Origin: Ktedonobacterales bacterium
Lineage (GTDB): Bacteria > Chloroflexota > Ktedonobacteria > Ktedonobacterales > DATBGS01
Direction: 5' to 3'
Assembly (NCBI GenBank): GCA_036557285.1
Contig: DATBHW010000073.1
Location: forward strand, 551-64,550
Length of the DNA stretch: 64,000 nt
Shown here: positions 4,858 through 20,916 of the stretch, in pieces
Position numbering within the stretch: the stretch's first letter is position 1
Layout: each line of letters opens with the position of its first letter
Position numbers and translations under genes: made by a program
The notes under the pieces: model-generated
Told to the model about the DNA's origin: nothing
What the model saw: only the letters and a program-made list of their open reading frames with translations
Databases searched by the model: none

Positions 4858-6204
<1,347 letters not shown>

Positions 6205-6405
6205 TTATGATACTGGCCCTGCCTGCAAGACAAGAAGAGAGAGTGTGTTCTCTCTTTGTGGTAACGAATGACGGCGAAGAGAGTATGCCCGATATGAGGC
6301 GATTGCCAGCAAAAATGTTTCGCTCTGCCGCGCCGCGAGTACACATCATGAGGCGTCTGGGAACACGCTGTCATGCTCATACTTGCTTGTAGTTGGGAGA
6401 ATCTC

Positions 6406-7140
6406 ATGAGATTGGTTCGCTCACCTCTGGTAGCATCGGTGCTGTTGCTGCTGTGCCTTGCAGGGTGCCGATCTGGTGATTATGCTCCTTCAGTGGTTCC
6501 TGAGTGGCTGCTGGGATGGAACCCTCCGGCGAAAGGGATCGATGCTTCTGTGCCTCTTGATACAGCCTTCAAGATGGGAACTATTCTGGAGCATTGGTCT
6601 ACACCAGGCTCGTTACCAGATTCGGCAACTACCTGGCTCTTGCTGGGGAAGACGTTCGGCATTGGGCGGGTTCGGCTCGATGCTGAGGGGTTCTATCAAG
6701 ACCTCGCCTTTCTCTATGTTAATTCCCAGCAGCATACTTGGGATGCGAATGCTACTTCTATCGTCAGTGGGCAGCCCTGTAGCGATGGGAATAAGGTATC
6801 GGGTTCGCTCGTATTTCCTGAGCCTGTCTGCCCCAACGGTCTTTTAACATGGTTTAGCCAGCCTTTCAGCTTTACGCTGACAACCTGGCACTTTGCAACG
6901 CATATCTATGTGCTGATGCGAGCAGGAGTTCAGCTTCACAATGTTGATAGCGATGGTGTCCCCGTTCAGATCGGCTCATTTACCGGACACACGCGCCGAT
7001 CTGGAGAGTTTACCACGATCATCGTGCCAGTCGGTACGAACGAGAGTATGCTGATCGCCACTTCAGCCGGAAAAGAGGTCACAGCGCAGCTTGCCCAGGC
7101 GATGGTTGCTCAGAGGGATGATCTTGTGCCTCTGGATTAG
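6406..7140 (+). CDS. Hypothetical lipoprotein
   Basis: Signal peptide with lipobox LLLLCLAGC. GC content is lower than in the neighbours. Confidence 0.6.
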   Translation: MRLVRSPLVASVLLLLCLAGCRSGDYAPSVVPEWLLGWNPPAKGIDASVPLDTAFKMGTILEHWSTPGSLPDSATTWLLLGKTFGIGRVRLDAEGFYQDLAFLYVNSQQHTWDANATSIVSGQPCSDGNKVSGSLVFPEPVCPNGLLTWFSQPFSFTLTTWHFATHIYVLMRAGVQLHNVDSDGVPVQIGSFTGHTRRSGEFTTIIVPVGTNESMLIATSAGKEVTAQLAQAMVAQRDDLVPLD

Positions 7141-7167
7141 CCGGATGAGCAGAGAGACAGCCTCGTC

Positions 7168-7245
7168 TCACCCTCTGTTCCACAGGCGCGAGACCCAGCG
7201 GCGGCTGCCATGCGCTTCGACAAAGTGGCAGGCGCCGCTGTAGCC
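7168..7245 (-). pseudogene. Relic of a GNAT gene 3' end (last 25 codons plus stop), a direct repeat of 9811-9888
   Basis: 71/75 nt identical to 9814-9888. It translates to GYSGACHFVEAHGSRRWVSRLWNRG*, versus GYGDACRFVEAHGSRRWVSRLWNRG* for the intact gene. Confidence 0.8.
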
Positions 7246-7274
7246 ACAATAGGAACAATGAATCGGCAAAACTG

Positions 7275-7302
7275 TTGACTCTGGCAGCAACCCATTTATA
7301 AT
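7275..7302 (+). promoter_or_regulatory. Putative promoter at the left edge of the low-GC islet
   Basis: TTGACT-N16-TATAAT. Confidence 0.45.
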
Positions 7303-7350
7303 AGGTTATGTAAACGGACAAGCTCTTCCTTCCTTCCTGACGCTTCCAAA

Positions 7351-7860
7351 ATGGAAGGAGGGGTGGCCCTTGAAGCGTGCGGTCTTTCCCCGGTTTCTCA
7401 AACCCTGCACTGGATAATGAGTGTTTCTATCGAGCGCAATTTCACGGAGGATGGCAAAGAAATGTCTGCTCTCGACACCCCGGCAGCCCAGGGTGCTTCT
7501 GGATTCCTGCCTGATAGGCGCTCTGTAGCCCCATTGCTCCTTGGCCCCGCTTGCTGGCATGAGCCAGCCCTTGCCAGGATGGTGAGCCAGGGCAAGGAAA
7601 TCCTGCTTACCCCACGCGAGAATGCCCTGCTCCTGCTCTTGCTGAGCGCGCCCTATGAATGGCACAAGACTGGCGACCTGGCGGCTTTGCTTGGTGAACG
7701 TCTCGGTATGGCAGAGGTTTCTCTGCAATCCGTCCGGCAGACCATGCTGGGCCTGCGCCGCAAACTGGATAGCTGTGCTGTATCCTCTGACCTGCTGCGC
7801 TGCCGTCCTGGGCATGGCTATGGCATTTTCCCGCCCACCATTACCGATCCGCTCTCTTGA
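7351..7860 (+). CDS. Stand-alone OmpR/PhoB-type winged-helix DNA-binding protein (no receiver domain)
   Basis: C-terminal LTPRENALLLLLL...SVRQTMLGLRRKL...RPGHGYGIF resembles the trans_reg_C domain. The start codon is uncertain (7351, 7363 or 7417). Confidence 0.55.
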   Translation: MEGGVALEACGLSPVSQTLHWIMSVSIERNFTEDGKEMSALDTPAAQGASGFLPDRRSVAPLLLGPACWHEPALARMVSQGKEILLTPRENALLLLLLSAPYEWHKTGDLAALLGERLGMAEVSLQSVRQTMLGLRRKLDSCAVSSDLLRCRPGHGYGIFPPTITDPLS

Positions 7861-8089
7861 TACCACGCGGTCAATTCACACCAACACAACACAGATCTGA
7901 CGCAATTACAACGCTATCTTGACGCGCCGCGCTCAATGCTCAGGTTAAACTCTATGCAGCGAAGGAAAGAGGCGGATCGGAGCTTGTAGCCAAGACTGCC
8001 GACGCGATCTCCCGGCAGCATACCTGCTTGAGCTACACTTGTGATCGCTTAATGCGACGGACTTTTTGCATAGTGAAAGGAGACCCAGG

Positions 8090-8617
8090 ATGGGAACACG
8101 GCGAACTCCTGATGCGTCTGCGAAGATAGCTGCCAGGCATATTCTTTCTTGGCGCAGCAGACGCGGATTGATAGCCGTCCTTGTAACTTGCCTGGTTGCG
8201 CTGATGGCATCCAGTGTGAGTTTTGGTGTCGGTGGACATACCCCCGTGGCTCACGCCTCTTCGTGCAATGGTTACTACCGGCAGAGCAACCACTGGGGGG
8301 CCTGGTTTGAGATCGACGGAAGCACAAGCTGTCTCGGAACTCCGCCACAAGGTGTAGCATGGGTTCAACCATGCGGTGCATCGATCACGGTAAACGCGGA
8401 TGTCTGGCTCAGTCAAGGTACTACACCTGGAAGCAATCGCCTTGCGGAGTCTGGACGAACGGGCAACGTGACATATCAAGGCAATTGCAACTGGCATCTA
8501 GCTATCCAGTTAATTGGTTGGGGCCAAATTTTCACGACGCCGCTGTACGCCTGTATGTGGGCCTTAAATCCGAGTAACAATCAATCATTTGATTGGTTTT
8601 GTGTACAGGACTCCTGA
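8090..8617 (+). CDS. Small secreted Cys-rich protein (possible Tat signal)
   Basis: AAAGGAG SD 7 nt upstream of the ATG. N-terminal SWRSRRGLIAVLV...AHA signal, and a mature ~125-aa part with 7 Cys. No family recognised. Confidence 0.5.
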   Translation: MGTRRTPDASAKIAARHILSWRSRRGLIAVLVTCLVALMASSVSFGVGGHTPVAHASSCNGYYRQSNHWGAWFEIDGSTSCLGTPPQGVAWVQPCGASITVNADVWLSQGTTPGSNRLAESGRTGNVTYQGNCNWHLAIQLIGWGQIFTTPLYACMWALNPSNNQSFDWFCVQDS

Positions 8618-8643
8618 GCCATGATTGACGGCCATCATGGCTC
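8616..8643 (+). terminator. Hairpin overlapping the stop codon of the Cys-rich protein gene
   Basis: 10-bp perfect stem GAGCCATGAT/ATCATGGCTC with an 8-nt loop. No U tract. Confidence 0.3.
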
Positions 8644-8854
8644 GGCTTATGCGGTGACCCCTAGAAGGGTGACTCCTCACATTGAGCCATTTGCATCATG
8701 TTCGAGGCCGCGAGACCGCGCGAGACGCGCTGGGGGAGTGTGACGAGAGGCTCAATCCTTTGGCATTCTGCACTAGACATGCTGTCTGGACATCCCAGGC
8801 ATCAGCAATGTTGAGCGTGGCCGAAGCGCCACATGAAGGGAGACTGCACACGCC

Positions 8855-9478
8855 ATGCGGATACGAACCCTACCATTCTTGTTGGTTGCAATCGGGACTC
8901 CAGTGCTGCTGATCATCGCGATCCTCGTGGGGATTTTCTTCTCGCGGACATTGCTCCCGATCACAGCACAACCACTAGGTATCTCCGGATCCCAACCAAC
9001 CCCTATACATCATTACGGCCCTGAAGCTGGAAATATCAGCGATTCACTGATCTCGCCAGACAATGTGACATTTCAGATCGTGGACATCCAACGCGACGCA
9101 ACCAAGTGGCTGTTTCACATCCATGCACATAACAATGCAGATCTTGACACGAAAATCCTGGATGCTGGAACAAGCCACTACTTCATGCTAGGGCTCCAGG
9201 GTCCTGCTGGCACGCCAATCCCGCCCGACCAGGGTGAAGTCATACTGGCTGCGCCAGCGCAGCCAGATGCGGCAGCACACCCAGCATTGCCCGCTGTGGT
9301 CGCGTCGAATGCGGATGTAGATGGATGGCTAGTTGCTGACCTAACGAACGCTAAGTATAAGCCGTTCCAGTTGTTTTACGTGTATGGAACGGTACCGACT
9401 GTAGCGTGCGCGAACCCGAGGGACACGAGCACCTGTCACACAGAAACTGCCTGGAGGACGCTCGTCTGGATGTTGTAG
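8855..9478 (+). CDS. Membrane-anchored hypothetical protein (N-terminal TM plus beta-rich ectodomain)
   Basis: TM helix LPFLLVAIGTPVLLIIAILVGIFF followed by a soluble domain. No family recognised with confidence. Confidence 0.5.
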   Translation: MRIRTLPFLLVAIGTPVLLIIAILVGIFFSRTLLPITAQPLGISGSQPTPIHHYGPEAGNISDSLISPDNVTFQIVDIQRDATKWLFHIHAHNNADLDTKILDAGTSHYFMLGLQGPAGTPIPPDQGEVILAAPAQPDAAAHPALPAVVASNADVDGWLVADLTNAKYKPFQLFYVYGTVPTVACANPRDTSTCHTETAWRTLVWML

Positions 9479-9810
9479 TGTAAGTGACTCGGCATACTAG
9501 TCAGTATCGGGCCATTGAGCCCGCAAAAAGAATTTACAACGTTCAGCATTACGGTCCCTGAAATAGAGCGCATTGGTAGGAGACAAGCGATGGAGGCGAT
9601 GATTCCCAAAAGCATCGCCTCCTTCATCATTGGAGGAGGAGGAGGAGGAATTTCCAGGTCTCCGAGTTCAGTATGAACCCTCGACGTTGTAAATTGCACG
9701 GACGGGCCAAATAGGCCAGGCTGTACTTGCGCTGCCCTGCGTCTTCGCGCAACAAGGTCAAGTGCGAGGCGGCGGCTGACCTGAGACGGAAGCGATAGGG
9801 CTGCTGCGCC

Positions 9811-10698
9811 TTACCCTCTGTTCCACAGACGCGAGACCCAGCGGCGGCTGCCATGCGCTTCGACAAAGCGGCAGGCGTCGCCGTAGCCGATGTTCTTATA
9901 GGCACGAATGGCGGGCGTGTTATCGGCGCGCACGTTCAAGATCGCCAGCGCCTCCGATTGGCCTGGTTCGTCCGGCCCGAAGCCGCGCAGCGCCTCTGCT
10001 GTTACGGCGGCAGTGACGGCCTGCGCGAAGCCGCGCCCACGAAAATGCGGATGGGTGAAGACATTGCCTACAGCGGCAATGCGCTGCGAGGGCGAGATGA
10101 CGTGTGTGCCAGCGGTGGAGACGAGCCGCCCATCCACTTTGATGCCGTAGAAGATGCCACTCTCCAGTTGATAGGCGGCAAAGGCGCTGGCCGAGGCCAT
10201 GCGATAGATGCGATTCAGTTCAGGCAGATCGCGCGCGGTCAAGGGCGCGGCGCGCTCCTGCTCTCTGGCAGGCCGAAAGGCGGCCTTGCTCACGGTCATG
10301 CGCAGCATGTCGCGGATGTGGCGCAGGCGGTAGCGTTTCTCCAGCGTGGGAAGATGCGCTGATTGGGCGGTGATCTGGATAAAAGCGGGGGTTAGCTCTT
10401 GCTCCAGCGGAGCGCACACGGCCCCAGGCTCGCCCATCAGAAAGAGGACCACCGGATCCAGTCGCCCGAACTCCATGGTCAGCCCACGCGCCTCGCCCTG
10501 GGCATCGCTGATCAGAAACCATTGACAGGCGCTAAAATACCCCTCTTCCAGATCGCAGAGGGCGTATCCGGCGTAGAAGCGATCACGGTTCAGGAACGCC
10601 GCGATCTGGTCTTTGTCGGTGGTCTGGCGCACCGTGTAGCGGGCGTGGGTGAATGTCGTCATCAGATTATCTGGCCCCGTTGACCCAATCGGGGTCAA
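9811..10698 (-). CDS. GNAT family N-acetyltransferase
   Basis: Acetyl-CoA motif A VFTHPHFRGRGFAQAV. An alternative start lies at 10662. Confidence 0.8.
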   Translation of the reverse strand: MTPIGSTGPDNLMTTFTHARYTVRQTTDKDQIAAFLNRDRFYAGYALCDLEEGYFSACQWFLISDAQGEARGLTMEFGRLDPVVLFLMGEPGAVCAPLEQELTPAFIQITAQSAHLPTLEKRYRLRHIRDMLRMTVSKAAFRPAREQERAAPLTARDLPELNRIYRMASASAFAAYQLESGIFYGIKVDGRLVSTAGTHVISPSQRIAAVGNVFTHPHFRGRGFAQAVTAAVTAEALRGFGPDEPGQSEALAILNVRADNTPAIRAYKNIGYGDACRFVEAHGSRRWVSRLWNRG

Positions 10699-11608
10699 AG
10701 TGGGTGAAGTTCAGAAATTCGTGGTAGCGCGTGTTGATCTCTCCGGGCGAAAGCGTCTTCAGGCGGCTCATGCCGAAGTCTTCGCAGTGGAACGACCCCA
10801 TGATGTTGCCATGAACTAAGGCGCGCTTAAAGTCGGTAGTCGTCAGATCGCCATTCTTCTGGGAGGCGCGAGCGAGATAGCCGATGAAGCCGCCCGCAAA
10901 GGCATCGCCCGCGCCAGTCGGGTCGCGCACCTCTTCCAGGGGGTAAGCTGGCGCGGCAAAGAAGCTGCCATCTTTGCTGAAGAGCAGCGCGCCATAGGAG
11001 CCTTGCTTGATGACGATCATACGCGGGCCATCGGCCAGGATTTTATGCGCGGCTGTCACCAGGCCGGGTACGTCGGCGTACTGGCGCGCTTCCTCTTCGG
11101 ACATCAGCAGCACGTCAACTTTGCCGATCACCTCTTTGAGTTCTTTGGGCGTGCTGCTGATCCAGAAGTTCATGCTGTCCAGCACGCGCAGGCGCGCGCT
11201 GGTAGTTTGATCCAGCACTTCGTTTTGCAGCGAGGGATGGATATTGGCGAGAAAGAGGATGGGCGCGCTGCGATAGCTGGCGGGGATGATCGGGTGGAAA
11301 TCGGCAAAGACGCCCAGTTCGGTATAGAGTGTGTCGCGGGTGTTCATATCCAGGTGATAGCGCCCGCCCCAGCGGAAGGTACTCCCTTCCACGATCTGGA
11401 TGCCCGCGATGTCTGCGCCCCGGCTGCGGAAGTAGTCCAGGTACGCCTGGGGGAAATCGGTGCCGACGACGCCGATCATGTTGACGGTATCGTAAAACGA
11501 GGCGGCGGCGCAGAAGTGGGCGGCTGCGCCGCCCAGTATATCTTCGGCCCGGCCAAAGGGCGTTTCGACCAGATCAATGCCAATCGAGCCAACAACGAGA
11601 ATCGCCAT
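10667..11608 (-). CDS. PfkB-family carbohydrate/nucleoside kinase
   Basis: N-terminal VVGSIGIDLV and the C-terminal PfkB signature DPTGAGDAFAGGF. Start trimmed to ATG 11608. Confidence 0.85.
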   Translation of the reverse strand: MAILVVGSIGIDLVETPFGRAEDILGGAAAHFCAAASFYDTVNMIGVVGTDFPQAYLDYFRSRGADIAGIQIVEGSTFRWGGRYHLDMNTRDTLYTELGVFADFHPIIPASYRSAPILFLANIHPSLQNEVLDQTTSARLRVLDSMNFWISSTPKELKEVIGKVDVLLMSEEEARQYADVPGLVTAAHKILADGPRMIVIKQGSYGALLFSKDGSFFAAPAYPLEEVRDPTGAGDAFAGGFIGYLARASQKNGDLTTTDFKRALVHGNIMGSFHCEDFGMSRLKTLSPGEINTRYHEFLNFTHFDPDWVNGAR

Positions 11609-11646
11609 TATGAAAATATGCTCCTTATCCACTTGTAGCATCCACT

Positions 11647-11701
11647 TGTAGCGCCGCCTTCCAGGCGGCCAGCGACCAGCCGCCTGGAAGGCGGCGCTAC
11701 A
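11647..11701. repeat. Family-A minimal hairpin copy (55 bp)
   Basis: TGTAGCGCCGCCTTCCAGGCGGC-loop-GCCGCCTGGAAGGCGGCGCTACA, a ~23-bp perfect stem between the HD and PfkB genes. Confidence 0.85.
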
Positions 11702-11709
11702 GGTAGCTT

Positions 11710-16501: not shown

Positions 16502-17581
16502 CTAAGCAGCAGCGACTACGATAGGCTGTTTGACAGCAGCCCTGGAAATATTGATGGCAGCGTTGTAGTCGGCAGGCGCAGCGTACCCACACGACTGACA
16601 GACGAACTCAGCCTGGCTCTTGCGATTGGCTTTCTCGCAGTGTCCACAGACTGAGCAGGTGCGAGACGTATTGCGCGGGTCTACCAGATGGAGGCAGACG
16701 CCAGCAAGCGCGGCCTTATAGGAGAGGAAGGCACGGAGTTGGGCAAAGGACCAGGAGGCATGGCGATGACGCTGCGACCTTCTAACCGTGCTGTCCGTCC
16801 GTTGACGGATGTGTCTTAGGTCTTCAATCGCTATGCCGCGATGACTGGCCCTGGCTTTGGCAACCAGCTTTTTGCTGAGAACGTGGTTGGTGTTCGTATG
16901 AAAGCGGCGCTCTTTGCGCCGGAGGCGTTTGAGATGGCGTTTGGCCGATTTCGTACCTCGCTTTTGCAGGGCGGCCCGTAACTTCAAGAGGCGCGCTCTG
17001 GTGTGTTCCACCGCTTGCCCGCTGAAGGTGTCTCCGTCGCTGTCGGTGGCGAGGTTGACAATGCCCAGATCAACACCCAGCGTATCGGTAGGCTGCTCTG
17101 CGGGCGGCGTTGGCGCCTCCAGGGTTACGGCCAGAAAAAACACGCCGTTGCGGTAGATCAAATCAGCCTGGCCCTGGATGGCTTGCAGACGCGCCTCTTG
17201 ATACCCGCCAATGAGGAAGGGAACCAGGACACGCCCGGCGCGCGTCAAGAGCGAGACCTGATTCAGCCCCTTGAAGGACATCACCCGCTGGTCATAGACG
17301 ATGGCCCCTTCTGGGCGAAACGCGGGCTTGATGGCCTTATCGCGTTTGTAGACTTCGCTGGTCTTGCTGATGGCGCGTATCGCCAGTTGAGCGGGCAGCC
17401 TAAACTCAGCACGCAGGCGGGCATAGACGTGCTTCTGAAGTGCAAACTTGTTGGCGCTTTTCAGGGTAAATGCCTCTTCTGCTACCGCGTTGCAGGCGGC
17501 GTTAAAAGCGTGCATCACGTCCAAGAGGGCGCGATGCTGCGATGGCGCAGGGGCTAACTTCAAAAGCATGGTCTGTTTCAT
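16502..17581 (-). CDS. tnpB: TnpB (IS200/IS605-family OrfB, RuvC-like RNA-guided nuclease), apparently intact
   Basis: RuvC triad candidates LGVDLGIVN (D), GIAIEDLRHI (E) and ADYNAAINI (D). Zn ribbon CSVCGH...CQSCG. Confidence 0.9.
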   Translation of the reverse strand: MKQTMLLKLAPAPSQHRALLDVMHAFNAACNAVAEEAFTLKSANKFALQKHVYARLRAEFRLPAQLAIRAISKTSEVYKRDKAIKPAFRPEGAIVYDQRVMSFKGLNQVSLLTRAGRVLVPFLIGGYQEARLQAIQGQADLIYRNGVFFLAVTLEAPTPPAEQPTDTLGVDLGIVNLATDSDGDTFSGQAVEHTRARLLKLRAALQKRGTKSAKRHLKRLRRKERRFHTNTNHVLSKKLVAKARASHRGIAIEDLRHIRQRTDSTVRRSQRHRHASWSFAQLRAFLSYKAALAGVCLHLVDPRNTSRTCSVCGHCEKANRKSQAEFVCQSCGYAAPADYNAAINISRAAVKQPIVVAAA

Positions 17582-18828: not shown

Positions 18829-20916
18829 ATGCGTCGAGTGGAGCGAGTGACAGCAGACAGCGCAGTAGGTGTCGAGCCGCGCTATCGGGCTATCAGTGAC
18901 TATGGGGTGATTGGCGATTGCCGCACGGCGGCGCTGGTTGGGCCGGATGGCTCGATTGATTGGTGCTGCCTGCCGCATTTCGACAGCCCCGCGATCTTCT
19001 GCCGTTTGCTCGATGCCGAGCGAGGCGGCTTTTTTCGGATGAATCTGGCGGGCGGCGCGCAATCAGCAATGGCCTATCTACCAGGGACCAATATCCTGGA
19101 AACGACGTTGACCAACGCCAGCGGGCGGCTGCGTCTGCTGGATTTTATGCCTATTCGCAAGCGGCGGCCAAATGCCCGCCTGGCCCGCCATGTGGGCGTG
19201 GCGCTGCTTTCGCGGGCATCTCAGAAGCGGAGCGCGGAGATAGAGCGCGATCTGGGCAACGATGTCGCGGCGTCGCATCGCCTCCAGCGGATGGCGGCCT
19301 GCCTGGAGGGGAGTGTTGAGGTTGAATTGACGCTCAAGGCCACGTTTGATTACGCGCGCCAGGAAGCGCAGATCGAGCGCCAGCATCTTTCGGACGATAT
19401 GACCGGCGCGCTGCTCTGGGACGATGGGCGCTACCTGGCGCTGGTGGTTCGGCGTATACGCGCCAGCGCGGATGGTCTCCAGGCTGCGCCGCTGGCGCTT
19501 GAGCAATCGGATCACACGCTGCGTCTGCGCGCGACTTTGCGGGCGGGCGATCAGTTGGTGGCCGCGCTGAATTACGCGCGAGATCGCGCCGAGGCGCGGC
19601 TGCTGCTGGCCCACTTGGCCCGGCATTCGTTCGAGAAAGACCTGGAGGAGACGCAAGCCTACTGGTTGGATTGGTCGAAAAAGTGCCACTACAGCGGCCC
19701 CTATCGGCAGGCGGTGCTGCGTTCGGCGCTGGCCCTGAAGCTTTGCACCTTTGAGCCAACGGGCGCGATTGTCGCGGCGCCCACGATGTCCTTGCCGGAA
19801 TGGATAGGCGGCGTGCGCAACTGGGACTATCGCTATACCTGGCTGCGCGATTCAAGCTTCACGCTGGCGGCGCTGGCAAACCTGGGCTATCACGAAGAGG
19901 CGTGTCATTACTTTCATTTCCTGCACGACCTGCACCTGCGGCGCGGCGACGATGTACGCATTATGTATAACATTCGCGGGGAATCGGAAGATCACCTGGA
20001 AGAGCGGATACTGGATCACCTGGAAGGCTATCAGGGATCGCGGCCTGTGCGTATTGGCAACGGCGCGGCCCAGCAGCGCCAGCTTGACATCTACGGCGAA
20101 CTGCTGGACGCCGCTTACAGCTACCTGCGCCACGCGGGCTTCCGCCCCAAAAATATTACGCGGTTCAACCGTGATCTCTGGACATTCTGTTCGATGGTGG
20201 CCGATTATGTTATCGAACACTGGCAAGACCTGGATCGCGGTATCTGGGAGGTGCGCGGCGACCCACAGGCGTTCGTCTATTCGCGGGTCATGTGCTGGGT
20301 GGCGCTGGATCGCGCCTGCAAACTGGCCCGTCATTATCAACATGATCACCACGCGGATCGCTGGGAAACGTGCCGCGATGCGATTCATCAGGACATTCTG
20401 AAACACGGCTACAGCGAGCAATTACAGAGCTTTACGCAGGCATATGGGAACACTGCGCTGGACGCCGCCAACCTGCGCCTGCTGCTGGTCAAGTTTTTAT
20501 CGCCGGACAGCCCGCGCATCAAGAAGACCGTTGAGGAGACCCTGCGCACGCTGTCGGGGCCGCATGGGGTGGTCTATCGCTATCGCTCAGCCGCCGACTC
20601 GGAACCAGATGGCACGACGGATGATGGCCTGCCAGGCAAAGAGGGCGCGTTCCTGGCCTGCGCTTTCTGGCTCGTTGATAATCTGTGCTATCTTGGCCGA
20701 ACCGACGAGGCCCGCGAACGCTTTGAGGGGCTGCTGCGCTTCGCCAGCCCGCTTGGCCTGTTTGCGGAGGAAGTGGACCCCGATACCGGCGCGCACCTGG
20801 GCAACTATCCCCAGGCGTTTACGCACATCGGGCTGATTAACAGCGCCGTGACCCTCCATCGGGCGAATGATGGTATCCTGGTTGTCCACCCCAACGCGGC
20901 AACGCATGGCCGGTAA
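18829..20916 (+). CDS. Glycoside hydrolase family 15 (glucoamylase/trehalase-like)
   Basis: N-terminal ISDYGVIGDCRTAALVGPDGSIDWCCLPHFDSPAIF, the NWDYRYTWLRDS catalytic region and an (alpha/alpha)6 C-terminus. Confidence 0.85.
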   Translation: MRRVERVTADSAVGVEPRYRAISDYGVIGDCRTAALVGPDGSIDWCCLPHFDSPAIFCRLLDAERGGFFRMNLAGGAQSAMAYLPGTNILETTLTNASGRLRLLDFMPIRKRRPNARLARHVGVALLSRASQKRSAEIERDLGNDVAASHRLQRMAACLEGSVEVELTLKATFDYARQEAQIERQHLSDDMTGALLWDDGRYLALVVRRIRASADGLQAAPLALEQSDHTLRLRATLRAGDQLVAALNYARDRAEARLLLAHLARHSFEKDLEETQAYWLDWSKKCHYSGPYRQAVLRSALALKLCTFEPTGAIVAAPTMSLPEWIGGVRNWDYRYTWLRDSSFTLAALANLGYHEEACHYFHFLHDLHLRRGDDVRIMYNIRGESEDHLEERILDHLEGYQGSRPVRIGNGAAQQRQLDIYGELLDAAYSYLRHAGFRPKNITRFNRDLWTFCSMVADYVIEHWQDLDRGIWEVRGDPQAFVYSRVMCWVALDRACKLARHYQHDHHADRWETCRDAIHQDILKHGYSEQLQSFTQAYGNTALDAANLRLLLVKFLSPDSPRIKKTVEETLRTLSGPHGVVYRYRSAADSEPDGTTDDGLPGKEGAFLACAFWLVDNLCYLGRTDEARERFEGLLRFASPLGLFAEEVDPDTGAHLGNYPQAFTHIGLINSAVTLHRANDGILVVHPNAATHGR

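Follow-up and report, generated by a model that had tools for sequence, protein, structure and literature searches.

A displaced copy of a gene end

What process left a second copy of the 3' end of a GNAT acetyltransferase gene 2.6 kb away from the gene itself? The locus lies in a 64,000-nt stretch of Ktedonobacterales DNA (the window), between two conserved anchor genes.

4858-6135, minus strand: ahcY (adenosylhomocysteinase), the conserved anchor opposite GNAT
6136-6322, no strand: ancestral ahcY upstream region
6406-7140, plus strand: lipoprotein cassette with signal peptide MRLVRSPLVASVLLLLCLAGC, outside the repeat bracket and inside the low-GC variable region
7164-7245, minus strand: relic, comprising the last 75 nt of GNAT, a TGA stop and 4 nt further, displaced
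9807-9888, minus strand: live copy of the repeat, the working GNAT 3' end with its TAA stop at 9811-9813
9811-10662, minus strand: GNAT acetyltransferase (Pfam Acetyltransf_1/FR47), one of the two conserved anchor genes that flank the variable region

The GNAT assignment comes from the Acetyltransf_1 match (E = 1.3e-9). The database form of the protein has 283 aa from the ATG at 10662 (P0001, 100% identical over 283 aa), and its reading frame may begin as far up as 10698.

The relic and the live copy form a direct repeat of 82 nt with 76 identical positions (93%). The initial annotation had counted 71 identities in 75 between 7171-7245 and 9814-9888, with in-frame minus-strand stops in both copies (TGA at 7168-7170 in the relic); both observations hold, the full repeat being slightly longer. 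Its edges are sharp, with flanking identity falling to 20-35% on either side, and gapped local alignment gave no extension at either edge. Inside the repeat, a 39-nt identical core has mismatches on both flanks. A 56-nt core pattern occurs at these two sites only in the window and in 0 of 100 shuffles.

The relic adjoins the 3' end of the lipoprotein gene. Together with the DNA downstream, it is collinear with a segment of a related lineage, L007, that comprises the end of GNAT and the lipoprotein gene; in L007 the junction of these two genes is uninterrupted and neither the DNA between the repeats (hereafter the islet) nor the relic is present. A relative of this kind had been predicted, and L007 is the one that was found. 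The comparison supports reading the 82-nt repeat as the scar of an insertion. That much of the earlier interpretation stands; its attribution to site-specific integration, with the repeats as attL and attR, is not supported.

Genes and elements of the islet

Between the repeats lie a regulator gene, a conserved non-coding element and two cargo genes, all genes in the same orientation as the element.

7246-7265, no strand: joint, the 20 nt from the relic edge to the start of the homology upstream of the winged-helix (wHTH) genes of other lineages
7275-7302, plus strand: sigma-70-like promoter ahead of the wHTH gene, TTGACT-16-TATAAT, agreeing with the consensus at 11 positions out of 12
7462-7860, plus strand: receiver-less OmpR/PhoB-type wHTH protein of 132 aa (Trans_reg_C, E = 4e-6)
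7883-7974, plus strand: conserved non-coding element after the wHTH gene, a predicted operator/promoter
8090-8617, plus strand: Cys-rich cargo protein of 175 aa, ATG at 8090, with a predicted N-terminal SRRGLI signal motif
8855-9478, plus strand: membrane-anchored (TM) cargo protein with one TM helix, a linker and an Ig-like beta-sandwich domain in an AlphaFold model
9479-9806, no strand: non-coding tail running from the TM gene up to the GNAT stop; it includes a (GGA)6 run and, at 9589-9625, a hairpin

The promoter and the regulator had both been annotated correctly. The promoter surroundings are 88% identical to L008 and 78% to L016, and homology of the wHTH-upstream DNA to L016 begins at 7266; no counterpart of 7246-7265 was found in the other lineages' loci compared. 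Domain searches of the wHTH protein returned weak matches to the C-terminal domains of PhoB and VirG, and no receiver domain. The L008 copy shares 72% aa identity with it. A start at 7462 is more likely because the relatives start at the equivalent codon.

Within the conserved element are two direct repeats, ATCTGACGC at 7895-7903 and ATCTTGACGC at 7916-7925; TTAAACT comes next, with TATACT at that place in other loci. It is found in every wHTH locus, and L016 has a second copy beside one of its relics (r2). The element is a candidate operator/promoter for whichever cargo comes next, and the wHTH protein may control the cargo through it.

Searches with the Cys-rich protein, which the initial annotation took as putatively Tat-exported and in which an SRRGLI motif can be seen, gave no Pfam or NCBIfam match and 24 representative homologs. 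The TM protein belongs to a family of 57 clusters, and its AlphaFold model (pLDDT 82) has no significant PDB neighbour. In lineages L012 and L024 the order is wHTH gene, Cys-rich homolog, TM homolog and then the GNAT end, the distant Cys-rich homolog occupying the same position as in the window and the TM homolog (31% identical) adjoining the relic. The tail at 9479-9806 had no DNA or translated counterpart in any fetched locus.

A variable gap between conserved genes

The gene order mtnA-HD-PfkB-GNAT-ahcY-metK is kept in all relatives. Those with an empty site have ahcY directly after GNAT, across a gap of 74-300 bp; the GNAT-ahcY spacer of one of them, L010, matches window positions 6190-6322 at 79% identity. 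The lipoprotein gene is missing from eight empty-site lineages. Orthologs occur in L007 (63% aa identity), beside the live GNAT end, and in L061 (68%), beside a GNAT relic within a wHTH array.

At least six other Ktedonobacterales lineages carry a wHTH gene, the operator-like element and variable cargo in this gap. The regulator gene and element always lie at the ahcY end, and the cargo, different in each lineage, runs toward GNAT and encodes lineage-specific secreted, membrane or transporter proteins (MFS_3; Rv2525c-like/DUF4232/ABC-2; ABC/GntR; Peptidase_A4; unknowns). The wHTH family comprises only 13 clusters and is the gene common to all occupied versions of the locus. All seven clusters with fetched context place it in the ahcY-GNAT gap or, on a cut contig, by ahcY. 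Across five contigs from the source population, the islet is present in every one and no empty allele was seen.

Because the wHTH locus occupies the same gap in at least six lineages with varying cargo, the islet is, on this comparison, not a discrete element. The ahcY-GNAT gap is probably best explained as a hotspot for gene cassettes, shared by several uncultured soil Ktedonobacterales of one clade. The initial annotation had named an islet syntenic and universal in relatives as a sign against its reading; the islet is indeed syntenic in at least six lineages, but it is not universal.

Base composition leads in the same direction. The bracket is AT-rich, as had been noted (54.7% GC versus 60.3% for the window), but the low-GC tract exceeds it, running from 6136 to 9806 and taking in the lipoprotein gene, whose segment has the lowest GC of all (51.9%). 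In all related lineages the variable region has 52-57% GC versus about 60%. Low GC is thus a property of the locus in every lineage.

The bracket contains no recombinase, in agreement with the annotation, and within about 10 kb on either side a TnpB gene is the only gene of recombinase type. No integrase or recombinase was found in about 15 fetched versions of the locus.

Relics with variable edges

Eight GNAT 3' relics were recorded in six or seven lineages, representing at least seven distinct junctions. Their extents are given relative to the last base of the GNAT stop codon (position 0).

Window: -77 to +4
L008: -39 to +1
L012 and L061: about -146, a single junction common to both
L016, three relics: -68 to -33, -126 to +8 and -172 to -102
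L060: about -237 to -3

The edge differs from junction to junction (-39, about -68, -77, -126, about -146, -172 and about -237), which argues against a fixed att core, since with such a core the edge should stay constant. None of the recorded joints is farther than about 240 nt from the GNAT stop. Most relics contain a conserved GGCAGCCGCCGCTGG core; L016-r1 (-172 to -102) does not, and it also lacks the terminal 100 nt. The other joint varies as well, lying upstream of the wHTH gene in the window (7246), within a second wHTH copy in L061 and within the second operator-element copy in L016.

Relics resemble the GNAT of other lineages, as two examples show. The L012 relic is 90% identical to the L018 gene versus 80% to its own, and L016-r2 is 85-87% identical to L007 and L008 versus 81% to its own. 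L016-r1, by comparison, is 97% identical to its own GNAT. The one close sister pair, L012 and L018, is well resolved. Their GNAT genes are 96-99% identical over positions 201-867 and 74% identical over the last 100 nt, with five mismatches clustered at -165 to -153, upstream of the relic edge (P = 0.002). In the live L012 gene, foreign sequence thus starts about 20 nt upstream of that edge. From the mismatch cluster, the L012 insert would therefore comprise the donor's GNAT from about -165 as far as its stop codon, together with two genes. This 20-nt offset could instead come from later trimming of the relic.

Origin of the scar

The reading that fits the duplicated gene end best is a scar of ordinary homologous recombination combined with illegitimate recombination at a shared gene-swapping hotspot, rather than the footprint of a mobile island driven by an integrase. 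We favour, at somewhat better than even probability, an additive recombination of two versions of the locus that left the 82-nt scar and involved no integrase. DNA from a related lineage would have recombined homologously within GNAT and brought a complete 3' end with it, while an illegitimate joint at -77 linked its non-homologous end to the 3' part of the resident GNAT. Because that joint fell inside it, the resident 3' end would survive as the relic, its last 77 nt still attached to the old neighbour, the lipoprotein gene. Such an event, homology-facilitated illegitimate recombination (HFIR), would require neither integrase nor att site, and either order of the two steps fits.

On this model the wHTH-Cys-TM block, not the lipoprotein side, would be the incoming DNA. 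The GNAT of the closest relative is only about 86% identical to that of the window, so the donor tract, homologous crossover point and polarity of the window event cannot be mapped. A relic left by an L007-like resident should be the more L007-like copy, and the six differing sites do not sort cleanly: the live copy agrees with L007 at repeat positions 7, 11, 20 and 80, the relic at 60 and 77 only. Two further features sit loosely with the additive model. Confinement of joints to the last 240 nt or so before the stop is not required by a purely random process, and L016-r1 is not explained by the model in its simple form.

The relic and lipoprotein gene could equally have been the arriving piece, instead of 7246-9806. 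The resident locus would then have been ahcY-wHTH-Cys-TM-GNAT, and the lipoprotein gene would have entered with a fragment of a donor GNAT end, by way of a homologous anchor in ahcY and an illegitimate joint upstream of the wHTH gene; the relic would never have belonged to the GNAT of this genome. The final structure is symmetrical, an L007-type segment (GNAT -77 to the stop, lipoprotein gene and ahcY upstream region) joined to a wHTH-type segment, and backbone identities do not discriminate between the two polarities. Consistent with this reversal, wHTH-type loci laid out like the islet are common (L012/L024), the lipoprotein segment has the lowest GC, and three proximal relic sites differ from the live copy and from L007 alike. 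L060 has the same topology, its relic sitting between ahcY and the wHTH gene. However, in the window and in L060 alike, the donor fragment would have to end by chance within the final 77-240 nt of GNAT, whereas every relic, including the well-resolved one of L012, fits a GNAT-anchored event. On balance, we regard the reversed polarity as unlikely.

A Campbell-type insertion is also doubtful. Here a circularised fragment from a related lineage (wHTH upstream DNA, wHTH, Cys and TM genes, tail and GNAT -77 to +4) would have entered by a single homologous crossover inside the 82-nt segment and duplicated it. This would account for the coincident, sharp edges of the two copies, for the identical core between mismatched flanks and for the abutment of L016-r2 on the second operator-element copy, as expected of a circle junction. 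Hybrid copies would also be compatible with the mismatches: at five of five coding sites, L007 is matched by the live copy in its proximal half and by the relic in its distal half. The pattern comprises only six sites in the window, however, and site 80 breaks it. A crossover within the duplicated segment could not yield the L012 foreign tract, which begins about 20 nt upstream of the relic edge. Minimal efficient processing segments make homologous recombination very inefficient over such short lengths, here 82 nt, or 146 nt at 80% identity. Recombination between the copies could also re-excise the fragment, yet all five source-population contigs carry the islet and none shows an empty allele.

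The site-specific alternative proposed initially, in which the 2.6 kb is a decayed island or a passenger resembling a cis-mobilisable element (CIME), mobilised in trans by a tyrosine or serine integrase with its att site in the GNAT 3' end, is improbable. Direct repeats of a gene 3' end around lower-GC DNA, the in-frame replacement end, the empty site in L007 and the core shared by most relics would all fit, and the relics in series look like the tandem accretion at a single att site described for the ssrA islands of Dehalococcoides (PMC3146451). However, relic edges differ at each junction, L016-r1 lacks the core, the outer joints are non-homologous (intergenic, inside wHTH or inside the operator element), and the L012 foreign tract is longer than its repeat. 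The supposed element is also resident and syntenic in sister lineages, none of about 15 versions of the locus encodes an integrase, and the core has no copy in a viral contig collection.

Finally, a local tandem duplication or a second, decayed GNAT paralogue, the latter raised in the initial annotation with homology beyond 75 bp, is highly improbable despite the preserved frame and stop of the GNAT-derived relic: the sharp loss of homology past 82 nt on either side excludes the paralogue, the flank past the stop is collinear with DNA downstream of the single-copy L007 GNAT, and relics elsewhere match foreign-lineage alleles rather than local duplicates.

Comparison with known systems

The additive model shares features with several described systems. 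'Minimal mobile elements', or recombination hotspots between conserved flanking genes, reportedly described by Saunders and Snyder in 2002 and by Oliveira and colleagues in 2017, likewise place differing whole-gene cassettes between the same conserved genes without mobility genes. Those cassettes are exchanged via flanking homology, and clean double-crossover replacement leaves no scars, whereas the traces of the additive events proposed here include relics as well as a duplicated operator element and part of a second regulator gene. Integrons also grow one-sided arrays of promoter-less-looking cassettes downstream of a conserved promoter region; this locus has gene-end relics as separators, and no intI, attI or attC hairpins.

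In tandem site-specific islands and CIMEs, copies of a gene 3' end similarly punctuate strain-specific, lower-GC blocks downstream, some without an integrase. Sixteen Dehalococcoides ssrA islands have an integration module, and insertion occurs between two defined bases with a constant 20-bp repeat; many islands carry a serine-recombinase module (PMC3146451). Accretion of ICE/IME-type elements has been reviewed (PMC5704250). In contrast to their constant length and position, relic edges here range from -39 to about -237, and no version has a recombinase.

HFIR itself is an experimental phenomenon in Acinetobacter, Streptococcus pneumoniae, Pseudomonas stutzeri and E. coli, according to PMC5361080 and PMC3240628 (de Vries & Wackernagel 2002; Prudhomme et al. 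2002; Meier & Wackernagel 2003, as cited in PMC5361080). One end of an incoming linear DNA takes part in homologous recombination, and the other is linked close to this anchor at a place that shares no homology, as proposed here, where the process is read from natural scars alone.

The orphan arrays of T6SS and Rhs loci are the closest described analogue. T6SS clusters of Vibrio cholerae contain orphan immunity genes in sequential displacement arrays, explained by a proposed model of HFIR type (Kirchberger et al. 2017, PMC5361080), and Rhs loci contain orphaned 3' regions (Jackson et al. 2009, as cited in PMC5361080). There, as here, modules from other strains are added beside a conserved gene while older material is pushed downstream and kept; the mechanism proposed combines a homologous anchor at one end with an illegitimate joint at the other and involves no dedicated recombinase. 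The T6SS and Rhs variable part is the effector's own 3' region plus its immunity gene. Here the anchor, GNAT, belongs to a SAM-cycle/methionine-salvage neighbourhood and its 3' end stays conserved; what varies are whole unrelated genes past its stop, without evident toxin or immunity function. The scars are short non-coding relics of that conserved end, and the far end of the array holds a conserved regulator and an operator-like element.

The GNAT 3′ end is duplicated around a low-GC islet

The 3′ end of the GNAT gene occurs twice in the window as an 82-nt direct repeat, with 76 of 82 positions identical. The initial annotation had described a near-identical duplicate matching at 71 of 75 positions, with in-frame stops on the minus strand in both the displaced copy, or relic (TGA, 7168-7170), and the live copy (TAA, 9811-9813). 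Both observations held. Outside either end of the repeat, identity drops at once to 20-35%, and gapped alignment gives no extension. A 56-nt core is present in the window only at the two repeat sites and never occurred in 100 shuffles. The six mismatches between copies (gene-oriented positions 7, 11, 20, 60, 77, and 80) are all transitions. The gene carrying the live copy matches Pfam Acetyltransf_1/FR47; its longest ORF encodes 295 aa, and the database form (P0001) has 283 aa from an internal ATG. The 82-nt repeat is real and is an insertion scar.

Features of the ahcY-GNAT region
4858-6135, minus strand: ahcY
6406-7140, plus strand: lipoprotein gene, outside the bracket
7164-7245: relic, the displaced GNAT 3′ end
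7246-9806: islet, the DNA bracketed by the repeat copies
7275-7302: TTGACT-16-TATAAT promoter
7462: probable start of the wHTH gene (132 aa), as in its relatives
7883-7974: conserved non-coding element, directly after the wHTH gene
8855-9478: TM protein gene
9589-9655: hairpin and (GGA)6 run in the non-coding tail
9807-9888: live copy of the repeat
9811-10662, minus strand: GNAT

The islet contains its own promoter and encodes a receiver-less Trans_reg_C protein, a Cys-rich protein, and a membrane-anchored (TM) protein, all as originally annotated. The bracketed DNA is AT-rich as claimed (54.7% GC against 60.3% for the whole window), but the low-GC tract actually spans 6136-9806 and includes the lipoprotein gene (51.9% GC). 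The window lacks tRNA and tmRNA genes, which rules out a tRNA-type att site. Rfam matched nothing in 5500-10500 (E ≤ 1); thus, neither the conserved element nor the 330-nt tail is explained by a riboswitch or other known RNA. Nothing in the fetched loci corresponds to the tail. Its hairpin (GGAGGCGATG...CATCGCCTCC) has no T-tract behind it and is followed by a (GGA)6 run.

The relic is a displaced gene end with its old neighbor attached

The window matches JGI contig Ga0376027_0000069, from an uncultured Ktedonobacterales population, and the arrangement, islet included, is identical in all five source-population contigs encoding an identical GNAT. Gene order in relatives is mtnA-HD-PfkB-GNAT-ahcY-metK. 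In eight lineages (L002/L023, L003, L006, L010/11, L020, L021, L022, and L059, the closest at 86%) GNAT and ahcY are separated by merely 74-300 bp, so that the whole of 6136-9810 is extra relative to them. In the first three relatives, the intergenic sequence had diverged beyond alignment.

A further lineage, L007, revealed the origin of the relic. There, 25 nt past the GNAT stop, an intact lipoprotein gene begins (an ortholog with 63% aa identity), and both islet and relic are missing. This is the uninterrupted GNAT-lipoprotein junction that the initial annotation had predicted. The window relic and its downstream DNA align to the L007 GNAT end and the DNA downstream of it. As the two are collinear, the relic represents a displaced GNAT 3′ end with its old neighbor still attached, and a decayed GNAT paralog is excluded.

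A wHTH regulator family marks a shared cassette hotspot

The wHTH protein matched PF00486 (Trans_reg_C) at 27.2 bits (E = 4e-6), above the cut-off of 26.2, and its residues 40-125 align to the C-terminal domains of PhoB and VirG. Only this C-terminal domain was matched within its 132 aa, with no Response_reg hit. Lacking an N-terminal receiver domain, it is not a two-component response regulator. Its family comprises just 13 clusters among 5.8 billion proteins, 12 of which carry PF00486 in precomputed annotation. All seven fetched contexts placed the gene in the ahcY-GNAT gap or, on cut contigs, beside ahcY or GNAT. Whenever both ends were visible, it lay at the ahcY end and was transcribed toward GNAT. 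The islet's position is therefore shared with other lineages, although it is not universal, being absent from L007 and the empty-site lineages.

Directly after the wHTH gene, every wHTH locus conserves a non-coding element of 60-90 nt. Within it, direct repeats ATCTGACGC and ATCTTGACGC are spaced by about 21 nt, and a -10-like box comes after them. We infer that this element is a candidate operator/promoter by which the wHTH regulator would drive the cargo that follows. That cargo is different in each wHTH lineage.

Relics and cargo at wHTH loci (relic coordinates take the last base of the GNAT stop codon as 0)
Window: relic -77..+4
L008: relic -39..+1; cargo ABC-2, ABC_tran, GntR, 180-aa protein
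L012: relic -146..-7; cargo Cys-rich homolog, TM homolog, MFS_3, 204-aa protein
L016: three relics, -68..-33 (r3), -126..+8 (r2), and -172..-102 (r1); cargo Rv2525c-like, DUF4232, 117-aa protein, ABC-2, 395-aa protein
L018: cargo three unknown proteins
L060: relic about -237..-3; contig too short for a view of cargo
L061: relic about -138..+26; cargo Peptidase_A4, lipoprotein ortholog, MFS_3, others

Individual cassettes were common to different arrays, including ABC-2 (L008 and L016), MFS_3 (L012 and L061), and the TM protein (window and L012). The lipoprotein gene is simply one more cassette of this system: it lies beside the live GNAT end in L007 and beside a relic in the window and L061. 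In every lineage the variable region has 52-57% GC against roughly 60% in the flanks, which indicates that the GC dip marks the locus and not one recent arrival.

From lineage to lineage, cargo proteins appear consistently extracytoplasmic or transport-related. The Cys-rich protein has 24 representative homologs, and L012/L024 carry a distant relative in the corresponding place. In a confident model of the TM protein (pLDDT 82), a disordered linker connects a TM helix to an Ig-like beta-sandwich. Searching the PDB with this model returned only generic beta-sandwiches, none significant (E ≥ 0.01, TM < 0.5). Neither Pfam (E ≤ 1) nor NCBIfam yielded a significant match for the Cys-rich protein, the TM protein, or the lipoprotein. 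Members of the TM family form 57 clusters, and some of them lie on contigs of megabase size. The closest relatives of the window protein, P0135 (88% identity) and P0136 (79%), are as close to it as, or closer than, any GNAT relative is to the window GNAT (86%), so this cassette may be moving among unsampled lineages that are nearer to the window.

Recurrent relics differ in their edges

Relics of the GNAT end define at least seven distinct junctions, no two with the same edge (-39, about -68, -77, -126, about -146, -172, and about -237). L012 and L061 have one junction in common: the relic-MFS_3 flanks are homologous, and the DNA on the other side of the relic differs. A -77 edge common to the window relic and L016-r3 was considered and dropped, as other alleles put the r3 edge at about -68. 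One relic lacks the common GNAT-end core.

The outer joints were equally variable. In the window, the joint falls in intergenic DNA upstream of the wHTH gene; homology to L016 begins at 7266, and 7246-7265 has no counterpart in the fetched loci. The L061 joint lies within a second, truncated wHTH copy, and that of L016 within a second copy of the operator-like element abutting r2. The non-homologous joints involve variable positions of the GNAT end on the resident side and intergenic DNA, wHTH, or operator-like element on the incoming side.

Two loci showed additional peculiarities. L016-r1 (10673-10741), between the Rv2525c-like gene and the operator-like element, contains GNAT -172..-102 only, is 97% identical to the host GNAT, and is missing the last 100 nt, which every other relic retains; a simple additive model does not account for it. 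In L061, a 191-aa ORF (6098-6673; P0133) fuses residues 46-115 of the second wHTH copy, its middle part (77% identical to the window wHTH), to the C-terminal part of a cargo protein, an L018-type 266-aa protein. It appears to be a chimeric gene from one illegitimate joint.

A sister pair suggests both joints of one recombination event

The relics match GNAT alleles of other lineages. For example, the L012 relic is 90% identical to the L018 GNAT versus 80% to L012's own, and the end of L016-r2 is nearly exactly as in the L007 gene. Together with the cassettes common to arrays, this indicates that the DNA that came in originated in versions of the locus carried by related strains.

Comparison of L012 with L018 located a breakpoint. 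(L024, 100% identical to L012, was left out as an independent case.) Their identity is 96-99% across GNAT positions 201-867 and 92-100% through PfkB. Within the last 200 nt of GNAT it falls to 89% and then, in the final 100 nt, to 74%. The first mismatches are five clustered at -165..-153 (P = 0.002 against a backbone rate of 2.8%), some 20 nt upstream of the L012 relic edge. The L012 gene therefore has a donor-type tract within an otherwise resident gene, with its breakpoint near -165, and its relic is L018-like. From this foreign tract and relic, we infer that L012 received a donor piece running from about -165 through the stop and including two cargo genes. One donor end would have recombined homologously within GNAT; the other would have been joined at about -146 of the resident gene, whose own end was thereby displaced. 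A homologous crossover combined with a single illegitimate joint is what defines homology-facilitated illegitimate recombination (HFIR).

Alternatives for the window event

On these comparisons, the most likely origin of the window repeat is a homologous crossover together with illegitimate recombination at a cassette hotspot that these lineages share; reading it as attL/attR of an island without an integrase explains the data less well. Its final structure joins an L007-type segment (GNAT -77..stop, lipoprotein, ahcY) to a wHTH-type segment (wHTH upstream DNA, wHTH, Cys-rich gene, TM gene, tail, GNAT). Gene by gene, the window backbone shows a flat 80-88% identity to ten relatives, with no mosaic signal that would map the homologous crossover or the polarity of this event. 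We favor the wHTH block as the incoming DNA, anchored in GNAT, since every other relic fits a GNAT anchor. The same final structure would arise equally if the lipoprotein and relic had been the incoming DNA, anchored in ahcY. A third variant is Campbell-type insertion of a circularized fragment through the 82 nt. The six mismatches are compatible with the hybrid repeat copies that this would leave. As a sign of either an att-type or a Campbell crossover, however, their sorting (six sites, all transitions, one discordant) was judged too weak.

On a discrete element with an empty site, the observations point both ways: in L007, GNAT meets the lipoprotein gene without an islet, and in other lineages the islet genes reside at this locus and the outer joint is not conserved. 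The attL/attR reading of the initial annotation is not supported by the relic edges, as at least seven junctions all differ and share no constant att core; the conserved GNAT-end core also had no hits in a viral contig collection. Cargo mobilized in trans (a CIME) is likewise not supported: the islet proteins lack a recombinase domain, as first noted, and the gene tables of the fetched versions of the locus contain neither a recombinase nor an integrase. An integron is dismissed by the missing integrase, the lack of an Rfam match in 5500-10500, and the absence of recurrent hairpin repeats between cassettes.

Neighboring repeats and variable spots

Other features of the neighborhood were recorded. 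A TnpB-like gene (about 16502-17581, corresponding to L004 3082-4161; 359 aa; OrfB_IS605 and Cas12f1-like_TNB domains) lies about 6 kb from GNAT; no other gene related to mobility occurs within 10 kb of the locus. The window also holds a family of REP-like palindromes (core GCCGCCTGGAAGGCGGC eight times, inverted variant GCCGCCTTCCAGGCGGC twice) at 2106, 11653-11704, 18586, 18664, 21051, 26641, 29035, 48508, and 49173. One copy (11644-11704), located after the HD stop and before the PfkB start, forms a hairpin whose 26-nt arms are 96% complementary and enclose a 9-nt loop.

This HD-PfkB spacer (11642-11709) adds another small variable spot to the synteny block. It is empty in the window, L010, and L012, and houses a 177-aa Acetyltransf_3 GNAT in L002 and L006, a SnoaL protein in L007, a 91-aa ORF in L018/L019, and that ORF plus a DUF4258 protein in L061. 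A few kb past mtnA, L012 encodes a HicA/HicB toxin-antitoxin pair (18832-19289), which is absent there in the window's lineage.

Discussion

A duplicated gene end around low-GC DNA is usually taken as proof of integrase-mediated insertion. Our comparative data correct this tempting inference, pointing instead to homologous and illegitimate recombination between sister lineages. The locus offers a natural, multi-lineage record of this process in Ktedonobacterales (Chloroflexota), an order with, to our knowledge, almost no genetics. The record comprises at least seven scars dated by position, a duplicated operator-like element, and a half-copy of the regulator. With its tiny locus-restricted regulator family, conserved candidate operator, and rotating secreted and membrane proteins, this compact hotspot could be used to study the exchange of surface or exported functions among these soil bacteria.

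A bolder and, in our judgment, improbable reading is that the locus is a dedicated, recombinase-free device for cassette capture, in which the regulator and operator would express arrivals and the conserved GNAT 3′ end would be the preferred landing pad. That pad could be a recombination-prone sequence or the target of an unrecognized host recombinase. If true, the array would grow from one side, like an integron without an integrase. It would follow that read-through from the lipoprotein or cargo genes produces RNA antisense to the 3′ end of the GNAT mRNA over 82 nt (93% complementary), coupling cargo expression to GNAT.

Current ideas are not overturned by these findings, since similar arrays are known. 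In Dehalococcoides, of the same phylum, tandem islands at ssrA are site-specific: their 20-bp repeat is constant, insertion occurs at a defined point, and 16 islands carry a serine-recombinase module (PMC3146451). The ahcY-GNAT locus showed none of these. It more closely resembles a recombination hotspot or the sequentially displaced arrays of T6SS and Rhs loci, for which the HFIR model has already been proposed (PMC5361080; PMC3240628). What is distinctive here is the use of conserved gene-end relics as separators and the regulator and putative operator at the far end.
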